Positions 3,629 to 50,985 of a DNA stretch of 64,000 nt are shown piece after piece; position 1 is the first letter of the stretch; every line of letters starts with the position of its first letter. The translations under genes were made by a program, and so were the position numbers. The notes below the pieces were generated by a model. The model was not told the origin of the DNA and ran no database searches. It saw only the letters and a list, made by a program, of their open reading frames with translations. The stretch comes from a virus (taxonomy: Duplodnaviria; Caudoviricetes), in IMG/VR virus record IMGVR_UViG_2706795801_000001, positions 1 through 64,000 of that record, one strand, 5' to 3'.

Positions 3629-3840
3629 CTAAACCTCCTTAAATTCTACTTGGTGATGAGTGAAATCTCCATCCCCCGAAGCGTGGATCTCCCACACAAC
3701 TCCATGCTCATCTTCACCTTCAGCATAGTACCATCAACCCTGTGTATATTCAAGGATGTGTTGTGATTTTCAACCCAACCCTACATGGTAATATTATTGT
3801 TTGCATGAGGTGTATCTGTTTCCCAGTAGTATGTTTTCAT
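3629..3840 (-). pseudogene. Decayed small phage gene (nonsense codon plus frameshift)
   Basis: MKTYYWETDTPHANNNITM*GWVENH...VDG, then after a frame change YAEGEDEHGVVWEIHASGDGDFTHHQVEFKEV*, which abuts the next gene's RBS. Confidence 0.55.
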
Positions 3841-3850
3841 CAACCACCCC

Positions 3851-4207
3851 TTATTTAACACTAACCCATTTAATGCTGCGAACCTCTTTAGGTTCCACTT
3901 CTACCATATCATCAAAAGATTGCCATGAGAATCCAGCATCTTCCCAACTATTATCACCAGAGTATGTACAGACGTCAAACATGAAATGCCGTAGTGTATT
4001 GCCATCCATAATTTCAATTACACGAGATTCATCTACACGCCACCGATGTTCAACCGAATCGCCTTGCCATTTAGCTGGGAAACATTCTAACAGTGTCTCT
4101 CTTAGTCCATCAATAGACACATCATAACCTTTCTCAATATTATATTCAATCAATAATTGTGCAAGTGTTTTCTTCATGTTACTCTCCTCTGATATTAATA
4201 TCATCAA
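3851..4207 (-). CDS. Hypothetical protein
   Basis: ORF in co-oriented gene array; likely start at MKKTL. Confidence 0.7.
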   Translation of the reverse strand: MMILISEESNMKKTLAQLLIEYNIEKGYDVSIDGLRETLLECFPAKWQGDSVEHRWRVDESRVIEIMDGNTLRHFMFDVCTYSGDNSWEDAGFSWQSFDDMVEVEPKEVRSIKWVSVK

Positions 4208-5225
4208 TTTTGTTGTAAGTACAACCTAGTCCACCACAAGAAGTACATTCTTCTACAGGAGTGTTGATAACTCCCATAAGATGGTCTAAATATAACTTCA
4301 TATTTTCAACTAAATCTGCAAGACTGTTACCTTTAAACCCTTCAATAGGTGTGTAGTTCTGATACTTCTTACTTGGACACATTTCAAATATTTCTACTTC
4401 TTTGGTGCTAATTGTTTGTGTTTTGAATTGTGGTTTAGCATAACTACGTCCGTTACTTTTTGTAATCTCTGTACTCTTAGTGAAAGGTTTAATGTGTATT
4501 ACCTTCTTAACGGTAAGGCAAAAGTCGTAGTCAGATGTAAGCCTTGCATGTTTAGGGTTAATATTTTCCTTGATATAATTACGTACAATGTTGTATGTAG
4601 TATCTTGTGTGATATAACATGGTCGGTTGTGTAGTACTATATCAGGCGTAAGTAATTCCTCAAGTTCGTAGTAGTGTGTTATAGAGGTAAGGCTTTGCTC
4701 CATCACTTTAGGTGTCCAAGAGCTTCCGTTAGATACACGAATCTTCATATCCTTATAGTTATTCTCTACTAAGGCATATTCAATGTGACCTTTGTAATCT
4801 ACTTCAAATTCCACATCAACCTCAATATTAGGTAAGCGCTCTTGTACACGTTTATATAGCCCACGATAAGCATAATACTTACTACCTTGACCGATATACC
4901 ATTCACAGTCATCTTCAAACTCATCAGCTTCAGTAGGTGTCAATACTTTAGGAATAACACCATCGATATGTGTGGAGTCATCAAGTAACTTCCAAGAAGC
5001 TTCGCCATACCCACCAGATTGGTTCTTTTTGACAGATGTAATTTTATCTTCACCTTTCAAGAAATACCAACCACTTTTATGTTCACTATCTACAGGTTGT
5101 CCACCATTCACCAAAATACCACTGTAAATAGAAACTCGTTGTTTATTGTAGTCACGTTGATTGTTTGCGTAATAAAGACCTTTATCTGTATTATATGCGA
5201 CAATACTTAATTTATTTGTTGTCAT
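4179..5225 (-). CDS. Conserved phage hypothetical protein with C-terminal CxxCxGxG motif
   Basis: 348 aa; AGGAGG RBS; ends CTSCGGLG. Confidence 0.8.
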   Translation of the reverse strand: MTTNKLSIVAYNTDKGLYYANNQRDYNKQRVSIYSGILVNGGQPVDSEHKSGWYFLKGEDKITSVKKNQSGGYGEASWKLLDDSTHIDGVIPKVLTPTEADEFEDDCEWYIGQGSKYYAYRGLYKRVQERLPNIEVDVEFEVDYKGHIEYALVENNYKDMKIRVSNGSSWTPKVMEQSLTSITHYYELEELLTPDIVLHNRPCYITQDTTYNIVRNYIKENINPKHARLTSDYDFCLTVKKVIHIKPFTKSTEITKSNGRSYAKPQFKTQTISTKEVEIFEMCPSKKYQNYTPIEGFKGNSLADLVENMKLYLDHLMGVINTPVEECTSCGGLGCTYNKIDDINIRGE

Positions 5226-5528: not shown

Positions 5529-5629
5529 TATCTACTCCCATTTATTGTATTTCATTACACCCAAACACTATCACCTATTTTAATACTCATATGTAAAATT
5601 CTCCTTATAATCCCATACACCTGTGGACA

Positions 5630-5866
5630 TTATCTACCATAAAATCTTAACAGTTTAGATACTTCACCAAGACAGTCACACTCATCAAGCTCGTCTAAGA
5701 GGTTTGACTTTTCCTTCTGAATACGTCTGACCTTTAATTGAAGTTCATAAACTTCTTCATGACTTTGTGGGTCATAATCTTTTTCCTTTTTGGCATCTCT
5801 GTAACCTAATTCAAATATTTTTAATATCATATCATCTAAATCTTCCGTATCATCTTTAAATTTCAT
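5630..5866 (-). CDS. Hypothetical protein
   Basis: 78 aa, translationally coupled to the upstream ORF. Confidence 0.65.
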   Translation of the reverse strand: MKFKDDTEDLDDMILKIFELGYRDAKKEKDYDPQSHEEVYELQLKVRRIQKEKSNLLDELDECDCLGEVSKLLRFYGR

Positions 5867-14996: not shown

Positions 14997-17509
14997 TTAT
15001 AAAGTGCAACCACCACCATCACAACCTACATCTACTACTTCCTCAACCTTTACTGATGTAGTAGAACCTGAATTAGTTTTACTGTTCACATAATACCTAG
15101 TTTTCATCCCCAGCATTGTCATATACATCCAGTTTTTAAGTAATTCAACACCCGTTATATCCCTTTTTGTGAAGTCTAAATACTCATCTGCTGATATAGA
15201 TTGGTCTGTTGTAGCTTGAATACAAGCGTACACTTCAATCATATCCTTAGCTGGAATATCATAGGCTAGCTCATAATATTGCTCATGTGTGTCAGCATTT
15301 GGTGCCAAGAACCTAGTCTTCTTTTTCCCGTTAGTCTTCACCACTTTAATACTACGGGCAGGCAGTATGCTATTGGTGCCATTGGTTGCAATCGATGAAC
15401 TTTCATTTGGCATATAATTGGTTGTTACACTAAATCTCACACCATACAAGAGAACATCTTTACGTAAATCTTCCCAGTTCTGAACCAGTCCTTGTTTGAC
15501 TACTTTAAACACGTTAGGGTTCATAGTATCTATAGGTAACCAACCATCTTTCCATTTAGTTTTGTACATCCAGTCACATTGCCCACGTTCTTTAGCTAAC
15601 CTGACAGAGGCTTTAATCATACTGAATGCATGTAACTCCGCTAACCTATGAATGTATTGTTTACCCTCTAACGAAGAGTATTTTAATTTCTTCTCAGCCA
15701 TATGTCCAGCTAAATCTGTAATACCCACTCCGATATTACGTCTAGCTTGAGCTGAATACTTCAGTGCTGGAAATGGATAATCCATTATATCTATCACATT
15801 GTCTATACTTAAGGCAGCGTAATATGCAACATCTTCCCATTCACTCTCTGAAACCCTACGTGCAACGATAGCTGACAAGCTACATAAACCAATCTCAGGA
15901 ATACTCCCATCTTTATTGACTGGTTGTGTTTCATTTAGTTGGTATACATTATCGAAACCTACAGTAGGGAACGCTGTTTCCTGACCATTTTATCCTAATT
16001 TTCATTAGGTGCGGATCATATCATCTCCCGTTCGGGGAGTCGGACGCTTTTTCACCCAGTGACTAAACTGTGCTACTTCCTGTTATTAAGCTTATTCGCA
16101 TAAGCTCAGGTGATCTCTGAACCTTCCTACTCCGTAGGCTTGGCTGCTGATTGCCATCATCTTTACATGTTAAGGTTTCCAGCAATTCATCCAATTATTC
16201 GACTTGTATTCCTACAAGAAGCTGCATCAGTTTACAGATTAGAACTATAAATTTTATTTAAGTGTGGTGTATGCCTATTAAGCTCATCAGTACGGTGTAA
16301 GTAAATCTGACCACTCTCTTGTCCTTGAATCAAAGCTTCCATTATAACCTTTCGGGCACTAATATATGTCTTAGGTTTAATAGATTTTTCGTACTCGTGG
16401 TACAATGTATCGAACACTGATTGATCTGCTAAATACATAGCTTCATACAATTCTGGAGCGTTCTGATAACTGACTAGCATCCACTGTTCATCATTATAAA
16501 CTTTTTGTGCAAATAACTTATTACTACCAAAAGAGTAATGTATGCCATCAACCCTTACCTTTGCCGCAGTTTTCTTACTCTTCCATGTTAATATATCCAT
16601 AATCTCAGGGTCGAGGCAGTTAACGTGCATAGTAGCTGAACCCCCTCTACTATTCTGTAAGTTAGCAGCAACTGCACTTTCAGTCATTTTATAGTAAGGA
16701 CGTTTACCTTGGTGGATAGTAGTACCACCTCGTACACCATCCCCCTTACTGCGGGTCTTAAGGTGAGAACCAATACCTGCTGAAGCACAGGTTAGCATAT
16801 ATGCTATGTGGTCACCAGCCGATAACGAATCTACAGTATCAAAAGTTGTAAACGTAGCGCAACTGGCGTATGACCTACTGGGAGTTCTAAGGTTAGTCAT
16901 AAAAGGCGTCGGTGCACAAATCTTCTTATCACTTAAATAAGTGTAATATTTAATTACATCATCTAATCTTCTGTGTTTTGGCATACCCTTCATATTTGCC
17001 ATAGCCATCCCCATGTACATGAATTGGGGTGACTCTAGTGCAATATCTTTTACTCTATTTCGGATAATATATTTGTCATTGATCTGTTTAATCTCTGGGT
17101 AAGAAGATTTCAAATCTTTAGAATGGTCTATTACCTCCTCAAGCTTATTAAATTCTTCTTCTGAGTATCCTAAAGATTCCCAGTACCCTAATGCTACCAT
17201 AGTATCATGGTGGTGTTTCAAGGTTGGAATCTTTTTGAAACCACCAAAAGCTTCTTTATAGATGATACCTGCTAACACCCTACCTGCTAACATGAAGTGC
17301 TTCTCATCAAATTCTTCGACACATGCATCAATTATAGCTTTATCAATATCTCGTGTGGTGCAATTATTACTTAGTAACTTTAATGCTTTGAATGAAATGT
17401 CACTCCAATTCACTTTTCTTGCTGCAGCCCATCTCATCTTCTTATTGAACTTTTCTGCGTCAAAAGGTACAGGTGTCCCATCACTCTTAATTACTGTGGT
17501 AATACTCAA
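14997..17509 (-). CDS. nrdA: Class Ia ribonucleotide reductase alpha subunit, two exons (17509-16234 and 15985-14997; 754 aa spliced)
   Basis: ATP cone, PTP, ASC; NLCQE restored on splicing; C-terminal CDGGGCTL. Confidence 0.93.
15986..16233 (-). mobile_element. ORF-less group I intron (248 nt) in nrdA
   Basis: 5' splice after U with P1 CTGT/GCAG, terminal G; P AATTGCTGGAAA, Q AATCAGCAG, R GTTCAGAGATCA, S ATGATATGATCC; removal gives AAT CTG T|GT CAG GAA. Confidence 0.92.
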
Positions 17510-34963: not shown

Positions 34964-36391
34964 GTGAGATTGAAGAAGATACAAGACTACTATGGTATGT
35001 TACCTTTTCCGTTGACTGACGGACAGAAGTATAGTCTGGAGGAGTTCACTACTGGGACAGGACATTATGCGCTTGGAGGTGTCCAAGGGGCTGGAAAATC
35101 CACCGTAATGGCTCTACTAAGTAAATTCTATGGGGATGAAGTAATCTTCTGTGCATCTTCTGGCACTGCATCTAAACAAATGCCTGATGGTATTGGTAGC
35201 GGTACTGCACATTCTATACTGAGCCTATTTACCGAAGTATCTAGACCCGAGATGATGAGTAAAGTTAATAAGACTACCACAGCATTATTTGCTAAGAGTG
35301 ATTTGATCAAGGTGGTGGTTGTTGATGAAGCTTTTGCTATGGATAGTGATAAACTGTACACAATGTTACATCGTATCAAAAGATTCAACAAAAGGACAAG
35401 TAATCGCGGAGAACGGGACATTAGACTACTACTAGTTGGCGATTGGTGCCAAAGATTACCTATACTTTCAAACGAGGAAAAGCTAACAGTTAATGAGAAA
35501 CATGGACATTGGTTAATGTTTAAATCTAATCCTTGGAAAGAAGCTGATATTAAAGTTTTGATGTTGACTGAGGTCAAACGACAAGATGATAAAGTGTTTA
35601 AAGCTTGTCTTGATGTGATACGTTATGGTATTGAACATCGATATGAGGGAGCATTGAAGTGGTTGAATCAAAGGTATTCTAAGGAATATGATGATAGTTT
35701 ACTCTTGTTAGCCCCTACTAATAAAACTGTCACTGCAGCTAATAATTTATCTCTGCAGCGTAACCCCAACCCTAAAGGTTTATACACTGCAACAATCACT
35801 GGTAGGTATAACCTCAATGACTCACCCCTAGAAAAGGAAGTGATGTTGGCAGTAGGTAGTCCTGTGATTTCTGTAATAAATCATGAAGATGGTGACTATT
35901 GTAACGGAAGTTACGGTCATGTTACAGAAATGCAGTCCGATGGATGTTGGGTGCGTTTTGTTGGAGACCAAGAAGACACTTTTGTAGGGATGGTGACATT
36001 ACGGGAAGAGGAATCTTATATTAAGAAAGATGTCCTGCAAGAAGATGGTACATATGCGGATGAGCAAGGGAAAACTCTAGTGGGGACATGTACTGGTTTA
36101 TGTCTTAAGATTGCAGCGGCATATACTATAGCAAGGGCACAAGGTCGCACATTTAATTGTAAGGTTAATATTGATGTGGGGAATACAAGCTTATATACCA
36201 ATAAAGCCCTAGGGGATTTTGGGACTAGTGATGTGCTAGTTGCATGTTCCCGTGTAACCGATGTGAAAAACCTTACTCTAGTCCGTAAGATCGAACCAAA
36301 ACATATTAAGGTGTGTCGTGAGAGTATTGCTTTCTGGCATGAGAGTTTAGCTAAACAAGAGGAGAAATTAAAATGTCAGAATTATCTTTAG
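34964..36391 (+). CDS. SF1B Pif1/RecD-like DNA helicase
   Basis: GVQGAGKS, VVDEA, LVGDWCQ, KRQ, CNG, TIARAQG and ACSR motifs. Confidence 0.9.
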   Translation: MRLKKIQDYYGMLPFPLTDGQKYSLEEFTTGTGHYALGGVQGAGKSTVMALLSKFYGDEVIFCASSGTASKQMPDGIGSGTAHSILSLFTEVSRPEMMSKVNKTTTALFAKSDLIKVVVVDEAFAMDSDKLYTMLHRIKRFNKRTSNRGERDIRLLLVGDWCQRLPILSNEEKLTVNEKHGHWLMFKSNPWKEADIKVLMLTEVKRQDDKVFKACLDVIRYGIEHRYEGALKWLNQRYSKEYDDSLLLLAPTNKTVTAANNLSLQRNPNPKGLYTATITGRYNLNDSPLEKEVMLAVGSPVISVINHEDGDYCNGSYGHVTEMQSDGCWVRFVGDQEDTFVGMVTLREEESYIKKDVLQEDGTYADEQGKTLVGTCTGLCLKIAAAYTIARAQGRTFNCKVNIDVGNTSLYTNKALGDFGTSDVLVACSRVTDVKNLTLVRKIEPKHIKVCRESIAFWHESLAKQEEKLKCQNYL

Positions 36392-37095
36392 GTGATCGTA
36401 TGAAAGGTTATGAGAAAGTCCCACAACAGAAGTTAATGAGTAAAACTCCTGTAATTATGCGGCTTGACGGAAAAGCTTTCCATACTTATACTCGTGATTG
36501 CGATAAACCGTTTGATACAGATTTACACATTATCCGTCAAGGTGTATTGGAATATCTCTGTACCAATATACAGGGTTGTATCTTAGGTTACTCTCAAAGC
36601 GATGAGATTTCATTAGTACTTAAGGATTGGGATACTTATAATACATCAGCTTGGTTTGATAATAAGATTCAGAAATTATGTTCAGTTAGTGCTTCTATGG
36701 CTACAGCGGAGTGGAATTGTCTCTCATCTCAAGTAGATAGTGAGCGTGTAACAGGTTCAAATAAGTTTAATATACATGCTTTATTTGATACCAGATGTTT
36801 TAACCTACCAATCAACGAGGTTATTAATTATCTAATCTGGCGTCAACAGGATTGGGAACGTAACAGTGTCCAGATGTTAGGTCAGAGTCTATATTCTCAT
36901 AAGGAATTACAAGGAGTCTCTTGTAAGCAGATGATTACTAACATAGAAAATGACCACGGCATTGTGTGGGGAGAGTTACCTTCTTGGCAGAAACAAGGAG
37001 AAGTGTGGTTTAATGGTGAGGTTAAAACAGATTTTATTTTCAAAGAAAATAGATTGGAAGTTGATACACTGTTAAATATTACATCGAATATTTGA
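36373..37095 (+). CDS. thg1: tRNA(His) guanylyltransferase Thg1-like 3'-5' polymerase
   Basis: LGDRMKGYE, RLDGKAFH, YSQSDEISL, FDTR and WRQQD. Confidence 0.93.
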   Translation: MSELSLGDRMKGYEKVPQQKLMSKTPVIMRLDGKAFHTYTRDCDKPFDTDLHIIRQGVLEYLCTNIQGCILGYSQSDEISLVLKDWDTYNTSAWFDNKIQKLCSVSASMATAEWNCLSSQVDSERVTGSNKFNIHALFDTRCFNLPINEVINYLIWRQQDWERNSVQMLGQSLYSHKELQGVSCKQMITNIENDHGIVWGELPSWQKQGEVWFNGEVKTDFIFKENRLEVDTLLNITSNI

Positions 37096-38640: not shown

Positions 38641-39351
38641 ATGGTACAATTTATAGTAGAACTGCCAGATAAACGTATTGAGTTAGATGAAAGTAAAAGG
38701 CAGCGCATTATCGAGGAAGGTAACGCCGATATTAGTCAGAGGTTAAAATTAGCCCTTTATGTACAGAAAAGTATCCAAAAAAGGCTTGATGCTGGGCTTA
38801 AGACTAATAAGATTAATGCTGATGAAATTAGAAGGGTAATTGAACACTGGTATGCCAATGGCAGGGGAGTGTTAACTAAATCATTTAAGAAGGTATATGA
38901 TGAATCACCTCCGTCTAAAACTAAAGAGGTGGATTGGGTTACTGATATTGGAGGTAAGACTTATTTTAATAAAGAGTTTAGGATTGCGGTTGATAGTATT
39001 AAACTGAAAGATTTCGTTAAACTAAGAGAGAGTAAACTCTTTACTTATGGAACTAATAATACACCACTAACTACGAGGATTAGACAAATGGAAATAGCTG
39101 CCATATATGAAGAATTGTTAGAAGATAAAGATAAGGCTTTGGAAAGTAAGGATGTTGAATTGTTAAAGAAGGATGATGAGATATCTATGCTACGAGCAGA
39201 GTTAGAAGTTGCTAACTCCCTCAAACGTGATTGGGATACCATAGCTTTATCTTATAGAGAAAAAGGTTTTACACAAAAACAGATTGCAGAGCTTGTAGGT
39301 AAAAGTCTATCTACAATTAAAAGACTGTTTGCAGAGAATAGGGTAAATTGA
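38641..39351 (+). CDS. Coiled-coil protein with C-terminal HTH
   Basis: GFTQKQIAELVGKSLSTIKR. Confidence 0.8.
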   Translation: MVQFIVELPDKRIELDESKRQRIIEEGNADISQRLKLALYVQKSIQKRLDAGLKTNKINADEIRRVIEHWYANGRGVLTKSFKKVYDESPPSKTKEVDWVTDIGGKTYFNKEFRIAVDSIKLKDFVKLRESKLFTYGTNNTPLTTRIRQMEIAAIYEELLEDKDKALESKDVELLKKDDEISMLRAELEVANSLKRDWDTIALSYREKGFTQKQIAELVGKSLSTIKRLFAENRVN

Positions 39352-41378: not shown

Positions 41379-41633
41379 ATGAAACATCAACAATACATTG
41401 CATGTAAACGTGATGGTACTTTTGAATTTAGAAATGGTGAGCCTGTATTAAAACAAGAAGGTGATATTGCAATATTTAATTGTGAAGATAGTTTGGATTT
41501 ATCACAAATTAGTATGTTATCCGATTACTTTTATAACAACCCATTTAAAACGGGTACGTTTTCTAATCCAGCAGTTTCGTTAGAAGAATCTAGAATTCGG
41601 ACGAAAGATAAAATTAACAAAATAAAAGTTTGA
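41379..41633 (+). CDS. Hypothetical protein
   Basis: 84 aa ORF. Confidence 0.6.
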   Translation: MKHQQYIACKRDGTFEFRNGEPVLKQEGDIAIFNCEDSLDLSQISMLSDYFYNNPFKTGTFSNPAVSLEESRIRTKDKINKIKV

Positions 41634-41658
41634 CACACTTAGATGTTCAAGGTATTAT
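41630..41658 (+). promoter_or_regulatory. Sigma70 promoter of the RNA operon
   Basis: TTGACA-17-TATTAT. Confidence 0.8.
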
Positions 41659-41891
41659 GTACTTATAGAAACAAACGGGAGTTAAACGAAGATGTTCGTG
41701 GTTGCCGAGTCATGATTGCACTGGAGACACCTTTAACAATGTGATAATCGGGGCTAGGTTGCGGTGCGTTGGGCCAATCTATGGACGCCATCGTAAGCTG
41801 TTATTTCATTCGATAATAAGGATGGTGATAATATCTCGCAGCATGAAGCGATAGACATGCAAGCAAAGTTAACGCTATGCGCCAAATGCGT

Positions 41892-42048
41892 TTAAATATT
41901 ATTTTTATGCTAACTTTGGTTTAACGGTATAACGAAGCCGCTGAAAAAGATAAGATAACCCAAAGGCCACGGGTCGTATTCTTTAGTAGGTTAGAGGCTT
42001 AGGCGTCAAGTTCGACTCTTGGCAGGTTAGCATAAAAATAATATTTAA
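41892..42048 (+). ncRNA. tRNA-like RNA with expanded anticodon arm and long closing stem
   Basis: D arm GTTTAACGGTATAAC; T arm TCAAG-TTCGACT-CTTGG; stem AAGCC/GGCTT around a ~55 nt insert; 23-bp perfect terminal inverted repeat. Confidence 0.7.
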
Positions 42049-42124
42049 GCGTAATTAGCTCAGATGGTAGAGCGCTATCCTTCCAAGTTAGTGGTCATCG
42101 GTTCGAATCCGATATTACGCTCCA
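42049..42124 (+). tRNA. tRNA-Gly(TCC)
   Basis: Full cloverleaf GCGTAAT...CT-TCC-AA...TTCGAAT...ATTACGC-T-CCA. Confidence 0.95.
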
Positions 42125-42191
42125 AATGTCCAGTTGCAGGATTCTGGCACACGGTAATAACAACCGTATAATCAACACCTGCTTTAATTAA

Positions 42192-42268
42192 ATCTCGTTA
42201 GCTCAGTTGGATAGAGCAACAGCCTTCTAAGCTGTGGGTCGAAAGTTCGAATCTTTCACGGGATACCA
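42192..42268 (+). tRNA. tRNA-Arg(TCT)
   Basis: Full cloverleaf ATCTCGT...CT-TCT-AA...TTCGAAT...ACGGGAT-A-CCA. Confidence 0.95.
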
Positions 42269-42286
42269 ACTACTACACGTTAGTAC

Positions 42287-42315
42287 TAGACAACACCATT
42301 GAGATATAGTATAGT
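42287..42315 (+). promoter_or_regulatory. Internal sigma70 promoter
   Basis: TAGACA-17-TATAGT. Confidence 0.6.
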
Positions 42316-42319
42316 TTGT

Positions 42320-43204
42320 GAGAAGGTTGTTTTGTCTTAGGGACCTATGATTGTAAGACCCAAGTGATACCTGCGTACAGGATGACAATCCGAATGACTG
42401 ACGTAAACAGTCTATATTTTAAAGTGTTTGGTAAGTTGATAGTGCGGCTCAATTTTAAATGGTATGAGGTGGCAGCATATCAGTCAAACACTTTAAAATG
42501 TAATTACATTGAAGTTATTATCATAGCTTCAATCAATTGTTACATTAAAAGGAGGATAAGCCACCTCCTTTCTGAGATACCATAAGAAATTGCGACTATG
42601 GTTAGAAGTTTAAATGGCAAACAATGTTGGTTGGCGCAGATTACGTCAGTTGCGGCAAAAGGCTTCGTTTACTGGAGTCGTTTAAAAGGTGGGCGAATAC
42701 AACACCTAACCAACAACACTTCTGATGTGTCTAAACTCAAGACGTATAGTAAATAAAAAGCTCTGCAAACCAGTAACGGAACTGGGAGAAGAAAGAAACA
42801 AAACGGTACGGAGTTATGTGGTTCTCCAGCAATACTATACACACTCCTCTGAAGAGTTTAATCTCAAGACAATACTCCTGCCCCGTCCTCGTAAGAGTTG
42901 GAGTTCTTTCCTGTAACAAGGTTGTAGCCAGAGTGCACATAAAAGTTATAATTCGGATTTAAGGTTGTTAGTCATCCTTAAGTAAATTATTGTAAAACTA
43001 ACAAATTCTACTGTATACTTGCCAATGGTTTAAGGTAGTCTTATAGCGGAAACGCACTTCATTGGCGCGATAATGTTTGTTAGTATTTATATACATCCCT
43101 CATTAACATGAGTTCTAGTTGTAATTACACAAGGCAGACTGCTAACGTCCCACATACAAAAGAGAGTACCACTCAAGTGTGGGTATTTGGTTGTTAGCCA
43201 GTCC
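42320..43204 (+). ncRNA. Series of small stem-enclosed structured RNA modules
   Basis: Closing stems at 42416-42499, 42625-42715, 42744-42840, 42997-43084 and 43137-43203; no credible ORFs. Confidence 0.55.
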
Positions 43205-43970
43205 GTGACTGGGTGATAAAACGACCGCTGGTATTGTAATTTAAGTTGTGGGTAACGTGATACCTTATGACCACACCCATGTTACAATGATGGTAATGTC
43301 GTTCATGAAAGTCATATTCCCTACCGAACCCAGATACTGGTTCAACACCTTGCCATTAATATATGGTTTCTGTGCAACGCAGACTAAGTAGGTTAATTTC
43401 GGGTCTGTTGTACAAGGTAACGCATATGCGTTAAATAGAAAGTTCCAATGGTTACGACCTTGGTAACGGCAAAGTCCTTTCCTATGCACCAATCAACGAT
43501 GTCATAGTCAGAGGCAAACACTAGGACATAACCCTGCCTAGTATAAAACGGTTTTGGGTGTAATAATATGTAAGCGACCACATGACTTTATCGTGGGGAC
43601 GGCTGGTATTCTGGTAAGATGATCCAAGACTCCATTATAATGGTAAACTTAAAGAACGCAAATGTGATGCTTTAGGCTAAAGCGTGGTGAGTGGGAGTAA
43701 CATCCAATTTAAGCAATGAGCCTTCAGGTAGCTCCTGAAATGTCCACGGATTCACATATATAGCTTGCACATGACCACTGATTCAAGCCAGTGCATAAGC
43801 AACTCCTGTCATTCGTGGCACTCGGTTGGGAGTATAATCTGGACTGGGAGACTAATAAAACCTTGTATTGTTCAAGGTCAGAAGTAAGACACTGTGAATG
43901 TCTAGGTAGACGTACTGACACATTGAGTCCCACCAAGTATTGGGTATCTACTCATACAGATTAACACCCT
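43205..43970 (+). ncRNA. Large ornate ncRNA candidate (ROOL/GOLLD size class)
   Basis: About 760 nt with no credible ORF; many hairpins and long-range helix AAAGTCAT(43308)/ATGACTTT(43582); downstream of tRNAs; ends at a terminator. Confidence 0.55.
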
Positions 43971-43997
43971 TTCAGAAATGACTGGGTGTTTTCTTTT
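43962..43997 (+). terminator. Rho-independent terminator closing the RNA operon
   Basis: AACACCC...GGGTGTT followed by TTCTTTT. Confidence 0.75.
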
Positions 43998-44073
43998 ACC
44001 TGAAATTTGATCAGGGTTATCAGTACATGATAATATGATCTTATGAAACACACTATTAACAAGGAATAACAAA

Positions 44074-44265
44074 TTGCAATGTAGTTGCGGGAATACAATA
44101 CACAGACCGTCCTATACCTCTAAATCTAAATATGATTATATTTGTAATGAATGTAAAGGTTACGAAGTAGAAGACTATGATATACCTCCATCGGGGGAAG
44201 ATTTACTAAATATTAATTTAGAAAACTATAATAGATATGAATTAAGTGGTGATGGAAATGACTAA
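44074..44265 (+). CDS. Small zinc-finger protein
   Basis: CSCG...CNEC. Confidence 0.6.
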   Translation: MQCSCGNTIHRPSYTSKSKYDYICNECKGYEVEDYDIPPSGEDLLNINLENYNRYELSGDGND

Positions 44266-44611: not shown

Positions 44612-44659
44612 GTTATATTAAGTTTGACTGTATGTTCATGTTACTGTTATAATTACGTA

Positions 44660-44825
44660 TAGGTTGTGTGGCGGGGTTAAGTTCCTCCTCCTTACTTCAT
44701 CTGGCTACACTTCCTATATCCCTCCTAAAATGAGAGTAGTATATAACAGCTACCAGATATCTACAACCACACTTCCTCCTTCCCCCGCCTCATCAAATAC
44801 GTATGAGTGCGGGGTTTTTCTTTTT
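44660..44825 (+). ncRNA. Stand-alone C-rich small RNA
   Basis: TTGACT-18-TATAAT promoter with extended TG; intrinsic terminator 44783-44825; several TTCCT/CCTCCT motifs. Confidence 0.6.
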
Positions 44826-44871
44826 ATAAAATTTAAAATTAGTGTTGACACGATAGGTGTGAGGTAATATA

Positions 44872-45270
44872 GTGAGTGTATTATTAATTGAAGAAGGGAG
44901 GTTTATAATGTTTACTAAATTAAAATTGTGGTGGAGACTTGAGACTGGTAAGGATTTGCTTGAACAATTACAGAAAGGGTATGAGGAGCAGGTTATTATT
45001 ATCAGCGCCCTAGAGGATCAACTGGCCTCTTTAACTAGAACAGTTAAACTGCACACTAGGGTAGATGCAGATGTGAGTAGTACTAAGTATGATAAGTCTG
45101 TTATCATATGTTCTGGTAGATGGAAGAACCATTCGTACTCCGAGGTGTTTGAAGTCGAGGGTGGATTACTAAAAGATACTGTGGATATTCTTCGTGATAA
45201 GGAGAAAACGCACTCACGAGGTTATTACGATCTACCTTATGGTACTAATAGATTCTTTGGAGGTTTATAA
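44872..45270 (+). CDS. Hypothetical protein
   Basis: Probable start MFTKL with GGAGG RBS. Confidence 0.7.
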   Translation: MSVLLIEEGRFIMFTKLKLWWRLETGKDLLEQLQKGYEEQVIIISALEDQLASLTRTVKLHTRVDADVSSTKYDKSVIICSGRWKNHSYSEVFEVEGGLLKDTVDILRDKEKTHSRGYYDLPYGTNRFFGGL

Positions 45271-45530: not shown

Positions 45531-45710
45531 TAGTGGAAATTAAATTATATGAAGATTTGAAATTCTGTTGGAGAGTTGGTTATAAACTCAACCAGATTAA
45601 AGACTATTGTAATACCCCACTTTCTATAGAAGAACTTCAAGTTGAATTTAAGAAAATGTGGGAGAATGAATTGCAAAATAGATTAACTAGTACTAAATGT
45701 GAGGTGGCAC

Positions 45711-46049
45711 ATGATAATTAAGTGCTACTACGATAAAACACTAAAAATGTCAGCAGGTAAACTTGCGGCACAAGTAGGTCATGTAGTTGCCAACATGGTT
45801 ACTAATTTAGCACCATCAAAAATCATAGTACTAGAGGCTAGCCATAATAAATTTATTGGGCTGTGTAAGGATTCCGAGTATGTACAGCATGACGTAGGAT
45901 TAACTGAAGTAGTAGAAGGTACACCCACTGTATGCGGATACACTTACAACAACCTAGGTAATACTATCCATACAGATGGAGGTTTTGGTTGTGTGGAGGA
46001 CTTCCAAAGTGAATACATGAGCGTTTTTAATGTTAAGGAGGACTTATGA
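45711..46049 (+). CDS. Peptidyl-tRNA hydrolase, Pth2 family
   Basis: LKMSAGKLAAQVGH...KIIVL...DVGLTEV.EGTPTVCG. Confidence 0.85.
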   Translation: MIIKCYYDKTLKMSAGKLAAQVGHVVANMVTNLAPSKIIVLEASHNKFIGLCKDSEYVQHDVGLTEVVEGTPTVCGYTYNNLGNTIHTDGGFGCVEDFQSEYMSVFNVKEDL

Positions 46050-46537
46050 CAACTAAAATTATATTCTTGGATATAGATGGTGTGTTGAACAATGGTATAG
46101 ATTCTGACACACATTATGATGCTTCTTATGGAGAGTATTTCCTATATAGTCTTAAGTGTGTGGCGAGGCTTAACCGACTAATATCCGCAACAGGTGCCAG
46201 TATTGTAGTCTCAAGTACATGGCGTTTAGGTTTAACATTAAAGGAGATAAGAGTCTTATTGAATAATATGGGTATATTTGCCCCAGTTGTAGGAGTAACT
46301 GATGATCTTAGTAGATACCCATGTTGTAGGGGTAATGAAATATATAAGTGGATAGAAGATAATGAAGAATTATTAAAGTATGATTATTACTATAATTATA
46401 AATCCTACATTATCCTTGACGATGATACTGACATGCTACTATGGCAGAAAAATAACTTTGTCAATACCGATGGTCAAGTAGGACTTACTGCCGAAGATGT
46501 AAAGAAGGCTATTGAAATACTAAATAAGGAGAAATAA
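46046..46537 (+). CDS. HAD phosphatase (Swiss-Army-knife RNA repair type)
   Basis: FLDIDGVLN, VVSSTWR, RGNEI, ILDDD and GLT motifs. Confidence 0.88.
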   Translation: MTTKIIFLDIDGVLNNGIDSDTHYDASYGEYFLYSLKCVARLNRLISATGASIVVSSTWRLGLTLKEIRVLLNNMGIFAPVVGVTDDLSRYPCCRGNEIYKWIEDNEELLKYDYYYNYKSYIILDDDTDMLLWQKNNFVNTDGQVGLTAEDVKKAIEILNKEK

Positions 46538-46951: not shown

Positions 46952-49541
46952 ATGAGTGAAAAAACTTTATTTTCTCCAGCATCCCCTAAACAGGCGTTGA
47001 TGTTAAAGAGGGCAAGTGATACACAGATAGTTGTGATCGGTGGCGCTGCAGGTTCTGGAAAGTCCCATATTCTTAACCACTTACCCCTTCTTGTAGTTGA
47101 CGACCCTAGGACAAACTGTATTATGTACCGTAGGACTAACCCTCAACTAGAAGGTGGTTTGTGGCCTAACGGACGTAAGATTTGGGCAGAAATGCCAGAT
47201 TGGGTACCAAAAGAATATAAACCCAAGAATATCAGGGAGAAGGTTAAAGAAGTTATCCTTTATAACGGAGCTAAGATTAAATACAATCAGGCAGAAAATA
47301 CCTCTAGAGCTAAGGATGACGCCCAAGGACAGGAATTTACCTTAGTTTGTATTGACGAAGCAACACAACATGACTGGGAATTTATAGAATACTTAATGTC
47401 TCGTTTACGGTCGCCATCTAAGCATTTCTCAAGAATGGTGATGAGTTGTAACCCCGACCCAGATCATAAACTAAGGCAAATTATTGACTGGTACTTGGAT
47501 GAAGAAGGATACCCCGATCCAGATAAGGATGGAGTACAGAGGTATTTTATTACCCTTGATGGGGAGTTCCAATGGGGGAATACCAAAGCTGAATTAGGGG
47601 AGAGGTTCGATATACCCGAAAAAGACTGGGAAAGTAAAATATTATCCTTCGCGTTTGTCAGCGGGACTATTTACGATAACCCCCCCATGATGGTTTTGAA
47701 TCCACAGTACCTAGCTTTTCTTGAAGGCTTAAATGATATTGATAAAGCTCAACTGTTACACGGTTATCTAGTAGCCGCTTCATTCGTAATGGAATGTCGA
47801 TAATTTTGTTAATTGCTGGGAAATCTTTACACCTATTAGTTGCTATAGAATAAAGTATATAATTTGGCTATAGGTTTAGATAATCAGCACCTAAGGTATT
47901 ACCACCCAGAATAAAGTAAGGAAAATTATGAAAAATCTTAAAAGTTTAAATGCATCAAATTACTGTTTAACCCCTTGTGGTAAACTCTATTCCTTAAGAG
48001 TCAATAGTTTCATGGATGGTTGGGTAGTTGGTGGTTACCTGAAATACTCAATAACCTTCGATGATAGTTCTCATAAAGAAATGTTTGCTCACAGACTTGT
48101 GGCAATTGCTTATCTGGGAGGAGAAGATTCAAATAGGATTTTTGTGAACCATATAGACGGTAACACACTAAATAACCATAAAGATAATCTAGAGTGGGTA
48201 ACTCCGTCTGAGAACAACTTTCACGCTTATGAGACAAACCTTTCTGTTGGAAAAAAACATCACGTAGAAGGTCTAGAGTATCTTAAAGGTATATACAATG
48301 AAAGTTGTGATTATAAGAACCTCACAGAAGAGGATGTGCATCAAATATGTAAGCTCCTTGTTGCAGGCTATAGGGACGTGGATATAAGTCGTATGACTAA
48401 CTTACCCAGAAGGACAATAAACCACATACGTCATAAGGATCTTACCTTGTTTCCAAAGATTGTAGAACAATACTCGTTCTCTTTCACAAAAGAAGATCGG
48501 ATGTCACCAGAACAGGTAGTTCAAATATGTGAGATGTTACAGTGTGGGTGGAAAGTTATGGAATTATCTAGACATTTAGGGTTAAACAGGAAAAAAGTAG
48601 GTAATATTAAGAGTAGGAAGACCTTCCTTGATATATCTAAAGCATATAATTGGTAATACAAAGATCAACGACTAACCCTGACGGGTGTACGCTGTAAGCT
48701 TAAAGCAGTGGAAATACAAAACACCTAAGTAAATTTATATTTAGGTGAAGATATAGTCTAGACTGTATGGTGACATATAGAAGTTCATAAGAGAACTGAG
48801 TGTGATTTGCGAACTCACTTGAATAATACGAACTGGAATGCACGTGCTAAGGGGGCCAACTATCTACTTTCTGGATGGTTTCAAGAGGTTGATAGGATAC
48901 CTTCTGGTGGTGTAATGGCAAGAGGTTATGATTTAGCTGCCACTGAAAGGAGTCAAGTCAATAAACACCCTGATGCCACTACATCATGTAAAATGTTGAA
49001 ACATGAGGGGTATTACTACATTATTGGTAATTATCACGAAAGTTTTTATGATGATGTTGAAGATGTCTACGGGAGGGTATGTAAAAGGGTTGGTGATAGA
49101 GATAATGTAATGTTGTCTCAGGCGAAACTAGATGGAGATGAATGTACCATTGTTCTTCCCGTAGATCCAGCTTCTGCTGGTAAACAGGTGTATTTAGAGA
49201 TGTCTAAGTTTTTTACTGGTAATGGGTTTAGAGTTAAGAAAGACCCAGTAGCTGGTAATAAATCAAAACTTACTAGGTTCTTACCTTTTGCCACTGCAGC
49301 AGAGAATGGTTTAGTTAAGATAGTAAGGAACACTTTTGACGACAAAACTTATTTATGGATAATGAAAGAATTGGAAGCCTTTAACGGGGAAAGGTCAACT
49401 TCTACAAAAAAAGATGATTTTCCAGACTGTATTTCTACAGTTTTCAACTACTTATGTACCGCAAGGTCTAACAAAGCCTTCACCTTACCTACAATTGATT
49501 CTCCTTCTCTCCTATCTCACCATAAGTCGAGAATTAAATAA
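46952..49541 (+). CDS. terL: Terminase large subunit, two exons (46952-47764 and 48831-49541; 507 aa spliced)
   Basis: GGAAGSGKS, IDEA, SCNP; LLHG|NW restored on splicing; YDLA and KDDFPD nuclease motifs. Confidence 0.92.
47765..48830 (+). mobile_element. Group I intron (1066 nt) with HNH homing endonuclease
   Basis: P1 CGGT/GCCG, terminal G; P AATTGCTGGGAA, Q AATCAGCA, R GATCAACGACTA, S AAGATATAGTCT. Confidence 0.92.
47928..48656 (+). CDS. Intron-encoded HNH homing endonuclease with two C-terminal HTH repeats
   Basis: AHRLVA..VNHIDG.TLNN..NLEWVT.SEN..HA; repeated (L/M).xExVxQIC helices. Confidence 0.9.
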   Translation: MKNLKSLNASNYCLTPCGKLYSLRVNSFMDGWVVGGYLKYSITFDDSSHKEMFAHRLVAIAYLGGEDSNRIFVNHIDGNTLNNHKDNLEWVTPSENNFHAYETNLSVGKKHHVEGLEYLKGIYNESCDYKNLTEEDVHQICKLLVAGYRDVDISRMTNLPRRTINHIRHKDLTLFPKIVEQYSFSFTKEDRMSPEQVVQICEMLQCGWKVMELSRHLGLNRKKVGNIKSRKTFLDISKAYNW

Positions 49542-49671: not shown

Positions 49672-50985
49672 ATGATTAAATATTATTTGGTCGGTGGTGC
49701 AGTACGTGATATGTTTATGGGAGTATTATGTAATGACTATGATTTTGTTGTAGTCGGTGCATCACCTACTGATTTTTCTAATTGGAAGTCTGTTGGTAAA
49801 GATTTCCCTGTATTCCTTGAACCTACGCATGGTTGGGAGATCGCCCTCGCCAGAATCGAACGTAAAGTTGGTGTTGGCTACACTGGGTTTGAAACCGATT
49901 GGAATGGAGTTACCCTAGAGCAAGACTTGTCCCGCAGAGACCTCACAATCAACGCTATGGCGATTGAAGTAGATTTTGCTGCAAGTGTGTTAATTGGAGG
50001 GCCAGTCACTGTAGGGGGCGTTATAGACCCATTCAATGGGTTGTCTGATATCAAGGCTAAAGTGTTGAGACATACCAGTTCCGCTTTCATTGAAGATTCT
50101 GTAAGAGTTCTTAGGGTAGCTAGATTTCTGGCTAAGTTTGATAAGTACTGGGTAGATAGTGTTAATCACTGGAAATGCTCCCCAGAATTATATAAACTAC
50201 TTGAGTCTATAGATGTCAATGACCTAACACCAGAACGTGTATGGTTAGAGATGTCTAAAGCATTCTCTGAGGATAACCCTTCAGCCTTTTTTGATAATAT
50301 GTCCGACTGGAATAATCTATTCCCTATGTGGGAAGATATGTGGAAAACCCCACAGAAAGAAGATCATCATCCAGAGGGTTGTGTAGGTATACATACTGGT
50401 ATGGTTATGGATTATGCAGCTAAAACTTGGAGTGATCCTGAGATTGTATTTGCTGGTTTATGTCATGATTTTGGAAAACCTACTTGCTGGGATAAGTACG
50501 GTAATGCACATGGTCATGAAGTGGAAGGACTATCTTACATAAATGACTTCTGTGATAAGTGGAAAGTTCCTAACAGTTATCGTGAGTTGGCCTTGATTAC
50601 CTGTGAATATCATACCAAGGTACATGGTTGTATGTCTCGTGGCACTAATGGTTGGATGAAACCTAAATCCATCATGAAGTTGTTTGAAGCTACAGGTGCA
50701 TTAAAGAAACCTAGTAGGTTTATTAATATGCTGAAATCTTGTGAGGCTGATGCTAAGGGTAGAGGTGCTGGTGCGGAACAACTTGCAGAGTTTGAATCTA
50801 AACCTTACCTACAACGTAGTTACCTTGAAGATTGTTTATCTGAAGTACTTAACTACAACAGTAAACCTTTATCTGAGAAAATGCTTGCAGAAGGTAAAAC
50901 TGGTGTTATAATTGGTCAGACAATTAGACAGGAGAAGATTAAGTTGATCCGTGAAGTCCAGAACCAATGGAAGGAGAAAGTATGA
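49672..50985 (+). CDS. cca: Multifunctional CCA-adding tRNA nucleotidyltransferase with HD domain
   Basis: YLVGGAVRD, DYD, RRDLTINAMA, ED.VRVLR, HHPE and CHDFGK. Confidence 0.93.
   Translation: MIKYYLVGGAVRDMFMGVLCNDYDFVVVGASPTDFSNWKSVGKDFPVFLEPTHGWEIALARIERKVGVGYTGFETDWNGVTLEQDLSRRDLTINAMAIEVDFAASVLIGGPVTVGGVIDPFNGLSDIKAKVLRHTSSAFIEDSVRVLRVARFLAKFDKYWVDSVNHWKCSPELYKLLESIDVNDLTPERVWLEMSKAFSEDNPSAFFDNMSDWNNLFPMWEDMWKTPQKEDHHPEGCVGIHTGMVMDYAAKTWSDPEIVFAGLCHDFGKPTCWDKYGNAHGHEVEGLSYINDFCDKWKVPNSYRELALITCEYHTKVHGCMSRGTNGWMKPKSIMKLFEATGALKKPSRFINMLKSCEADAKGRGAGAEQLAEFESKPYLQRSYLEDCLSEVLNYNSKPLSEKMLAEGKTGVIIGQTIRQEKIKLIREVQNQWKEKV

Follow-up and report, generated by a model that had tools for sequence, protein, structure and literature searches.

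What could be made from about 2.4 kb of DNA in which a phage holds no gene? The question is posed by positions 41630-43997 of the window, by which we mean the whole 64,000-nucleotide stretch analyzed (positions 1 to 64,000 of IMG/VR record IMGVR_UViG_2706795801_000001), which belongs to a Shewanella phage genome of 133.8 kb. In an earlier, sequence-only reading, this promoter-to-terminator span was taken for a candidate new system, a precursor of two tRNAs and a chain of undescribed RNAs. Our analysis indicates that it is very probably a unit of functional noncoding RNA and a homolog of the lncRNA locus in phage ICP1. The fuller account, in which one untranslated, tRNA-linked mosaic unit is the counterpart of the ICP1 lncRNA and its transcript would be processed into hairpin RNAs, seems to us the likely one, and is held with less confidence. 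That the unit is noncoding, modular and tRNA-linked is supported by the missing coding signal, the conservation of its blocks, covariation, and the existence of a homologous, transcribed locus in ICP1. From 5' to 3', with all features on the + strand, a leader is followed by a tRNA-like element inside a duplex of about 30 bp and then by tRNA-Gly and tRNA-Arg, which a conserved spacer separates; small hairpin domains set on short, near-invariant linkers fill the next 1.7 kb or so, and a conserved 3' element of two hairpins comes after them.

The claim that no credible ORF led by a ribosome-binding site lies in this DNA is borne out: a Shine-Dalgarno sequence at 4-12 nt was found for 0 of the 31 ORFs of at least 25 aa within 41630-43997, and their codon scores (-0.27 to +0.17) are non-coding, compared with 0.20-0.43 for most of the neighbor genes that are likely real (non-overlapped). 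GC content is raised and G and C are balanced at the locus in the window phage, in ICP1, in Vibrio phage 1.101.O and in the relative L017; G:C skew is 0.07-0.10 at these loci versus mostly 0.20-0.27 in flanking CDS, the downstream genes of ICP1 standing at 0.087. Rfam covariance models (at gathering thresholds and at E up to 10) matched tRNAs and group I introns alone in the region, and at gathering thresholds they yielded nothing beyond these two classes in 15 related loci. No tmRNA was detected in the region by ARAGORN or Rfam. Folding energy is a poor guide here: sliding 120-nt z-scores average -0.41 inside the region and -0.44 in flanking coding DNA, with 42420-42600 (z -5.3 and -4.0) as the sole outlier, and the test is insensitive, for even the two canonical tRNAs have scores close to 0.

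In its design, 41630-43997 appears to be a single transcription unit that would remain untranslated. The sigma-70-type promoter P1 at its start (41630-41658, TTGACA-17-TATTAT, 11/12 matches) is near-consensus, in agreement with the sequence-only reading, and its hexamers are kept across four lineages while the spacer has diverged (the -35 hexamer is invariant, and the -10 hexamer is kept in phage 1/40, L017 and L018). At the other end, the terminator that had been proposed is recovered as a hairpin followed by a U-tract (43963-43997, z -2.7), and terminators of differing sequence occupy the equivalent place in L017, L018, ICP1 and 1.101.O. Such a pattern suggests that promoter and terminator function may be conserved despite sequence divergence. 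The case for a second promoter is mixed: the promoter-like P2 (42287-42315), itself a conserved block, matches at 10/12 positions and is kept in L018, but only weakly in L017, and promoter-like sites over the region are no more numerous than in shuffles (13 versus 11.4).

Both tRNAs claimed for the region are real calls, tRNA-Gly (UCC) at 42049-42124 with 68.6 bits and tRNA-Arg (UCU) at 42192-42268 with 68.2 bits. The spacer between them, block B3 (42122-42186, with a promoter-like site at 42144-42172), is 97% identical to L017, where it is preceded by tRNA-Met instead. Several relatives also carry tRNAs upstream on the same strand, and the set of tRNAs varies among them. The tRNA-like element (41911-42031) is enclosed by an A/U-rich duplex of about 30 bp (41878-42062, detected as a 37-nt inverted repeat), the 3' arm of which extends into tRNA-Gly; folded by itself, 41876-42064 has an MFE of -62 kcal/mol (z -5.35). 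ARAGORN called the element at the 90% threshold only, as tRNA-Asn(GTT) with a 47-nt insert. Its T arm is normal, the insert falls in the anticodon loop, CCA is missing, and the Rfam tRNA model RF00005 does not report it, even at E up to 10. We rejected it as a canonical tRNA on the grounds of the missing RF00005 and default ARAGORN matches, the loop insert, and an acceptor end buried in the duplex; the annotation of phage 1/40 has it as a pseudo-tRNA. Its 189-nt stretch differs from that of 1/40 by a single base, in the flanking stem, so that covariation cannot be tested there. The other relaxed ARAGORN calls were low-threshold, and we took them as chance.

The remainder of the unit is built of blocks. 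The 5' leader block B1 (41661-41718) is 91% identical to L017 and has a 14-nt deletion in 1/40. Past the tRNAs, block B4 (42391-42429, 95% identical to L017) comprises a 5-bp hairpin (42396-42412) and then the 5' arm of a long stem; it forms a junction after which the cargo differs phage by phage, and it is doubled in 1/40, as a 28-nt direct repeat flanking an insertion of about 520 nt. The long-stem module itself (42413-42502) has a stem of 18-19 bp with arms that are 94% complementary (z -5.2). In three versions of it (window phage, first copy of 1/40, L017), compensatory A:T and G:C indels keep the pairing, around cargoes of 54, 62 and 146 nt, respectively. The module is a candidate RNase III site. 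Its arms occur at a single locus in the 133.8-kb genome, and the idea of a MITE-like dispersed repeat was discarded. Next come an 11-bp hairpin predicted by folding (42508-42533), where two changes in 1/40 keep pairing as G-U when read by eye, and block B6 (42538-42627, 89-97% identical to L017 and L018), made of a GGAGG-containing hairpin (42548-42571) and an invariant linker with a second hairpin (42579-42602). In the first of these hairpins, an A-U to U-A change appears compensatory (alignment read by eye, the pair lying outside the automatic count).

Between B6 and B7 lies a variable insert closed by the stem TGTTGGTT/AACCAACA (42625-42715); at the same junction, L017 and L018 have a shorter insert (about 50 nt) of other sequence, which is stem-closed too. 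Block B7 (42713-42761, 94-97% identical to L017 and L018) carries a 4-bp hairpin with a 7-nt loop (42716-42730), and a diverged second copy of it is found at 42843-42870, with a compensatory stem pair between the copies (read by eye). Block B8 (42871-42954) is common to the Shewanella siphophage KASIA, where the portal gene follows about 140 nt downstream of it, and weakly to Vibrio phage henriette; it ends in a promoter-like site (42925-42952), and 6 of its 18 predicted pairs are changed on both sides. Block B9 (43004-43137, core hairpin at about 43019-43069) is 89% identical to L017, with differences concentrated in the loop, and is missing from 1/40. The segment that follows (43138-43241), with the stem GACTGCTAAC/GTTAGCCAGTC, is unique to the window phage, no homolog being found. 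The multi-hairpin block B10 (43242-43408) is 87% identical to L017, in which module order is rearranged, B10 preceding B9; among its 48 predicted pairs, 2 differ at both bases and 5 at a single base, with no pair broken. Blocks B11 and B12 (43431-43580) are 81-100% identical to 1/40, L017 and L018, with variable insertions at their junction (about 50 nt in L017).

Four stems had been singled out as examples of the modules, and all four are present as inverted repeats, two of them without comparative support. For the stem at 42416/42499, energy and compensatory indels together give strong support. For TGTTGGTT/AACCAACA, the architecture is conserved in L017 and L018 while the energy is unremarkable (z -0.24). 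The outer stem of B9, ACTAACAAA/TTTGTTAGT, is lost in L017, and GACTGCTAAC/GTTAGCCAGTC (z -1.2) falls in DNA peculiar to this phage; neither is upheld. The idea of a chain of structured modules therefore survives as far as modularity and conserved blocks are concerned, whereas the boundaries differ from those proposed and the region-wide folding energy is that of coding DNA.

Conservation of the blocks exceeds that of the surrounding genes. In metagenomic relatives, noncoding blocks are 81-100% identical versus 70-81% for flanking genes; relative to L022, they cover 33% at 89.8% identity, against 17-18% at 77-81% for flanking CDS. Single blocks reach 97-100% identity, and blocks remote from every gene start show 87-100%. 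The blocks, 35-200 nt long and on one strand throughout, are common to phages in varying combinations and orders, and stem-closed inserts that vary in sequence and length are bracketed by short invariant linkers. Near-identical phages differ by entire segments of 380-520 nt, and microhomology is seen at indel junctions. From these comparisons, the locus probably belongs with a group of mosaic loci, carried by marine phages of Vibrio and Shewanella, among which modules are traded, acquired and lost.

The 3' element is block B13 (43861-43916), which was found in six lineages; its identity with ICP1 and with Vibrio phage 1.101.O is 92-94%. It comprises a variable hairpin hp0 (43861-43877), an invariant linker, hp1 (43887-43903, a 5-bp stem with the 7-nt loop CUGNGAA) and hp2 (43905-43916, a 4-bp stem with a GACG loop). 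Its core, which extends from the CAGAAG linker to AGACGU inclusive, hardly varies and is always upstream of the unit terminator, within about 10-80 nt in 5 of the 6 lineages. Stem hp2 is 100% paired in all six, with two covarying pairs; the middle base (U, A or C) is the only variable position of the hp1 loop. Against ICP1, 33 of 35 positions are identical; nhmmer gives E 8e-6 in a pairwise search and 1e-13 to 1e-15 when a profile is used. A scan of IMG/VR with the 19-nt core returned ICP1 only. The exact 3' motif was found on neither strand of 185,579 species genomes from bacteria and archaea, nor in E. coli genomes; the genomes searched thus give no hint of a copy in the host or of a long perfect antisense target. 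The layout is compatible with that of an Hfq-type 3'-end sRNA, in which a conserved seed precedes a terminator hairpin with a U-tail. B13 sits in a 378-nt segment missing from 1/40, and is thus dispensable in this close relative. As for covariation in general, which the sequence-only reading had anticipated, it is found in hp2 and in the long stem 42413-42502, whereas most blocks are too conserved, or their homologs too few, for testing; in an ICP1 module, 9 of 26 pairs covary. A 340-nt 3' domain closed by GGGAC/GTCCC and followed by ACCA was rejected, its stem being absent from the MFE structure and the ACCA lost in L017 and L018 (by eye).

In ICP1, the chief phage predator of epidemic Vibrio cholerae, an ORF-less gap gives rise to the phage's most abundant transcript, an lncRNA of about 800 nt (PMC7567579). 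Phages related to ICP1 keep the locus, in a sequence that has diverged (PMC9040626), and chimeras of the lncRNA with many transcripts have led to the proposal of a sponge (bioRxiv 10.1101/2022.04.08.487710). Like the ICP1 gap between gp140 and gp139 (Barth et al. 2020, Boyd et al. 2021), the window unit is preceded on the same strand by a Pif1-type helicase gene, homologous between the two phages, and by several small ORFs; both are ORF-free gaps with raised GC and balanced G:C, both have the near-identical two-hairpin element of about 35 nt just before an intrinsic terminator, and both are mosaics of short blocks common to other marine phages. The unit in the window differs in being about twice as long, in its fusion with a pair of tRNAs and a tRNA-like element, in aligning over about 40 nt while the remainder does not, and in being known from sequence, expression having been measured in ICP1. 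Downstream, a tblastx comparison of the window genes with the lysis genes gp139-gp137 of ICP1 gave no match, and the first membrane protein (85 aa) is encoded 1.2 kb past the locus. On these grounds we regard the unit as a probable counterpart, linked to tRNAs, of the lncRNA locus in ICP1, which is itself outside Rfam. Since that locus is already reported (PMC7567579, PMC9040626), the system cannot be called entirely undescribed, and the earlier claim of novelty has to be narrowed. What appears to be new is the mosaic build, block conservation above that of genes, the linker-bracketed inserts, and the covariation of the 3' element and long stem.

Could the locus be explained otherwise? That it encodes several very small proteins is barely credible. 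GenBank annotates small ORFs in the locus of 1/40, one equivalent to window 42598-42756, and PHROG families exist for such ORFs; however, the profiles equal the annotated ORFs in length and may mirror only those annotations, the signals of coding reported above are missing, and frames are broken in relatives (a 52-aa ORF annotated in 1/40 meets a stop after 16 codons in L017, its frame being broken by a 38-nt length difference). A single large ornate RNA with one global fold, perhaps multimeric, of the GOLLD/ROOL type, is very improbable. These Rfam families are likewise large, phage-borne and often beside tRNA genes, and the comparison was drawn by the ICP1 authors for a phage without tRNAs (PMC7567579), but the long, ORF-free window unit and the 15 related loci match none of their covariance models, no long-range covarying helices were found, and the 380-520-nt differences between near-identical phages, together with the changed module order in L017, point to modules that can be exchanged, and away from a single conserved fold. 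We consider it unlikely that the locus consists mostly of DNA-level signals and recombination scars, that is, a hot spot of small-gene and tRNA insertion and loss in which the blocks are promoters, 5' leaders and terminators. This would account for the promoter-like hexamers within B3, P2 and B8, for the position of B8 ahead of the KASIA portal gene, for the varying tRNA sets and junction microhomology, and for the insertion in 1/40, where the 28-nt direct repeats flank a small ORF that has a good ribosome-binding site. It does not account for covariation in hp2, the long stem and the ICP1 modules, which indicates selection on RNA pairing, nor for the abundant, discrete RNA made by the ICP1 homolog, the strong conservation of blocks far from gene starts, or a balanced G:C composition typical of paired RNA.

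A further possibility, which we judge quite improbable, is counter-defense: the tRNA-like element and the hairpins with a 5-bp or 4-bp stem and 7-nt loop would imitate tRNAs or anticodon arms and soak up host anticodon nucleases, alongside phage tRNA-repair enzymes. Genes for a Thg1-like protein, a HAD_SAK_2 RNA-repair domain, a CCA-adding enzyme with an HD domain and a weak PTH2 match lie nearby; the element is tRNA-shaped with an interrupted anticodon loop, the hp1 loop reads C-U-N-N-N-A-A as in anticodon loops, and B7 and its repeat resemble hp1 with 4-bp stems. The resemblance was judged by reading alone, however; ICP1 has the 3' element yet no tRNAs, hp1 and hp2 are missing from 1/40, and mimicry of the anticodon arm of one specific tRNA is kept at low odds because the middle base of the hp1 loop varies.

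We therefore retain the processed, tRNA-linked RNA unit as the preferred reading. The sigma-70-type promoter would drive, and the intrinsic terminator close, a single transcript, which RNase P and RNase Z would cut at the tRNAs, RNase III at both long perfect duplexes, and RNase E in the A/U-rich linkers. In the tRNA cluster of T4, tRNAs and small stable RNAs (species 1 and 2) are freed from one precursor by host RNases; the extras of T4 are two short RNAs, unlike the 1.7 kb or so of modules seen here, with which they are not known to share any sequence relation. In rRNA operons and the T7 early transcript, RNase III cuts long duplexes formed by the sequences flanking an RNA; the perfect duplexes of the window are similar, and stem lengths of 18-30 bp suggest comparable cleavage. 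The abundant hairpin RNAs so released might sequester, as sponges or decoys, RNAs and RNA-binding proteins of the host, of satellites or of defense systems, a function that we propose tentatively and hold to be less likely than not. A more speculative, and rather unlikely, extension is a combinatorial array of RNA cassettes: linkers and closing stems would define slots in which marine phages swap, insert or delete hairpin cargo, each cargo would decoy a different host, satellite or defense factor, and the 3' element would be a shared handle for stability or protein recruitment. If true, such an array would be the RNA-level counterpart of accessory anti-defense gene islands.

A recognizable relative of the ICP1 lncRNA in a cold-active Shewanella phage also offers starting points for experiments: the 35-nt element can be mutated, the long stems are defined, and phages 1/4 and 1/40 form a natural presence/absence pair. 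An Rfam-type family could be built for a class of phage RNAs now misannotated as tiny ORFs and a pseudo-tRNA. Among public sequencing runs, no RNA run is recorded for this DNA, and the DNA matches are small shares of aquatic metagenomes.

The region 41630-43997 is a genuine RNA locus, untranslated and linked to tRNAs, of the kind represented by the long noncoding RNA (lncRNA) of Vibrio cholerae phage ICP1. Its promoter and terminator are conserved, coding capacity is absent, and its blocks and pairing are under selection. The virus record is 133,824 bp long with direct terminal repeats (the window covers bases 1-64000), and a phage of Baltic Sea ice, Shewanella sp. phage 1/40, is the closest public relative, with four segments that match the region at an identity of about 97%. 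The sequence-only reading had proposed a near-consensus promoter, a terminator, two tRNAs and no credible ORF between them, and on these points it was borne out. The promoter at 41630-41658 fits 11 of 12 positions, its -35 and -10 boxes being retained across four lineages around a divergent spacer; the unit ends in a hairpin and U-tract (43963-43997), and terminators at the same place in relatives differ in sequence. Both ARAGORN and Rfam call tRNA-Gly(UCC) at 42049-42124 and tRNA-Arg(UCU) at 42192-42268, beyond which Rfam gave no significant match over 41400-44200. A Shine-Dalgarno sequence precedes none of the 31 ORFs of at least 25 aa in 41634-44073, and by codon score (-0.27 to +0.17) these ORFs rank beneath the neighbouring genes that are probably real, most of which score 0.20-0.43. 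The 52-aa ORF annotated at the unit in 1/40 is truncated in the related metagenomic lineage L017 through a 38-nt length difference.

A distant DNA search matched 43879-43913 to unannotated gaps in every ICP1 record, at 94% identity, and in Vibrio phage 1.101.O, at 92%. The matched stretch sits close to the 3' end of an ORF-free gap of about 1 kb (ORF140-ORF139) in ICP1, and at the end of a 1.25-kb gap downstream of tRNA-Gly(UCC) and tRNA-Met in 1.101.O; a homologous Pif1-type helicase is encoded upstream, on the same strand, in all three phages. The ICP1 gap produces an lncRNA of about 800 nt, the most abundant ICP1 transcript (PMC7567579), from a locus conserved among related phages despite highly divergent sequence (PMC9040626). 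This RNA forms chimeras with many transcripts, and a sponge role has been proposed (bioRxiv 10.1101/2022.04.08.487710); a literature search found no later functional study of it. In its place and in its 3' element, the unit is homologous to this heavily transcribed locus.

When the corresponding gaps from ten further phages were added and compared all against all, the noncoding gaps proved to be linked by a network of common blocks of 35-200 nt, on one strand throughout, in varying combinations and orders. The ICP1 lncRNA is itself a chain of such blocks; in one that is common to three other phages, 9 of the 26 predicted pairs have both partners changed. The loci of four phages have in common an elevated GC content and a balance of G and C, and most flanking genes differ from them in this. 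For closer relatives, a search with the upstream 84-aa protein yielded three viral contigs from metagenomes, and one with the 3' motif yielded five metagenome contigs; together they give the lineages L017/L022, L018/L019/L023/L024 and L021. For ten of the window's noncoding blocks, identity to these relatives is 81-100%, against 70-81% for the flanking genes. In L017 the order of the blocks at 43004-43137 and 43242-43408 is reversed, and a different tRNA precedes the inter-tRNA spacer (42122-42186). Invariant short linkers flank inserts varying in sequence and length between 42538-42627 and 42713-42761, within 43431-43580 and after it. Between the near-identical phages 1/4 and 1/40, stretches of 380-520 nt are present or missing as a whole, and short direct repeats mark the junctions. 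One insertion in 1/40 relative to the window (about 520 nt, 3818-4338 of its locus, between 28-nt direct repeats) contains another version of the long-stem module, a 56-aa ORF whose ribosome-binding site is good, and a block of about 230 nt common to L017.

Region-wide folding energy is no better than that of flanking coding DNA (mean z -0.41 versus -0.44 in a sliding scan); the sole outlier of the scan is 42420-42600, and 41876-42064 stands out when folded separately. The claim of structured modules stood in part. All four inverted repeats it named are in the sequence, but the ACTAACAAA/TTTGTTAGT stem is lost in L017, and the GACTGCTAAC stem sits in DNA unique to the window's phage, with an energy that is not significant. 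Covariation upholds the long stem at 42413-42502, whose three versions (window's phage, second copy in 1/40, L017) are all 18-19 bp long; their A:T and G:C indels are compensatory, and the cargo they enclose (54, 62 and 146 nt) is unrelated. Covariation also upholds the 3' element (43861-43916), which across six lineages has an invariant linker and two hairpins, the first of 5 bp with loop CUGNGAA and the second of 4 bp with loop GACG. This second hairpin is 100% paired, and its sole variable positions covary (CG, UA, GC and UG at one pair, GC and AU at another); the structure of the whole element did better than 499 of 500 shuffles and every slid control. Smaller compensatory changes occur at 42871-42954 and 43242-43408, and, in an alignment read by eye, in a GGAGG hairpin within 42538-42627. 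Relative to the literature consulted on the ICP1 lncRNA, three points appear to be new: that the loci are built as mosaics of cassettes, that their 3' element is nearly invariant and covaries, and that the type reaches into Shewanella phages.

Upstream of tRNA-Gly lies a tRNA-like element (41911-42031), called by ARAGORN at a lowered threshold only and not reported by the Rfam tRNA model. Its T arm is normal, its D arm is weak, and its anticodon loop carries an insert of 47 nt. Its acceptor helix extends into a duplex of about 30 bp, the 3' arm of which overlaps the start of tRNA-Gly. Over the 189 nt of element and duplex, one base in the flanking stem is all that distinguishes the window from 1/40, too little variation for a test of covariation. 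Downstream of tRNA-Met in L017, positions 5620-5690 resemble a tRNA 3' half (T arm and ACCA-like end); ARAGORN makes no call on them, and they may be a further tRNA-like element.

A single precursor would be cut at the tRNAs by RNase P/Z, at two long perfect duplexes by RNase III and in A/U-rich linkers by RNase E, yielding abundant stable hairpin RNAs; the duplexes resemble rRNA and T7 processing stems, from which we infer their cleavage. One ornate global fold, as in GOLLD or ROOL, is disfavoured: no covariance model of these families matched the unit or 15 related loci, and modular indels and rearranged block order also speak against such a fold. Another explanation, that the unit is a decoy for tRNA nucleases, has low odds and is kept alive by the tRNA-repair genes plentiful nearby: a Thg1-like 3'-5' polymerase, a weak PTH2 match, HAD_SAK_2 and a CCA-adding/poly(A) polymerase head with an HD domain, dispersed over 36373-37095, 45699-46537 and 49672-50985. 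Titration of RNAs or RNA-binding proteins would be the most likely function, as suggested solely by ligation results for ICP1 and by modules that behave as accessory parts and turn over fast.

Outside the unit, 44640-44880 has a very stable local fold (z -5.2, -3.9 and -2.6 in three overlapping windows). It overlies a 67-aa TTG ORF with no Shine-Dalgarno sequence and a codon score of 0.007, is conserved in part in L017 and L018 (80%), and may be a separate small RNA. A 236-aa protein (38641-39351) that matches sigma-70 region 4/helix-turn-helix weakly, below threshold, may be a phage transcription factor, potentially one that recognises certain conserved blocks resembling promoters. At 46952-47803 the N-terminal portion of the terminase large subunit is encoded, followed by an HNH endonuclease ORF (47928-48656), which suggests that the terminase gene is split or intron-interrupted, as annotated in Shewanella siphophage KASIA. 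A group I catalytic intron lies on the minus strand at 15993-16243 (Rfam RF00028, 63.9 bits), and group I introns are likewise found in KASIA, within the terminase gene, and in L021.
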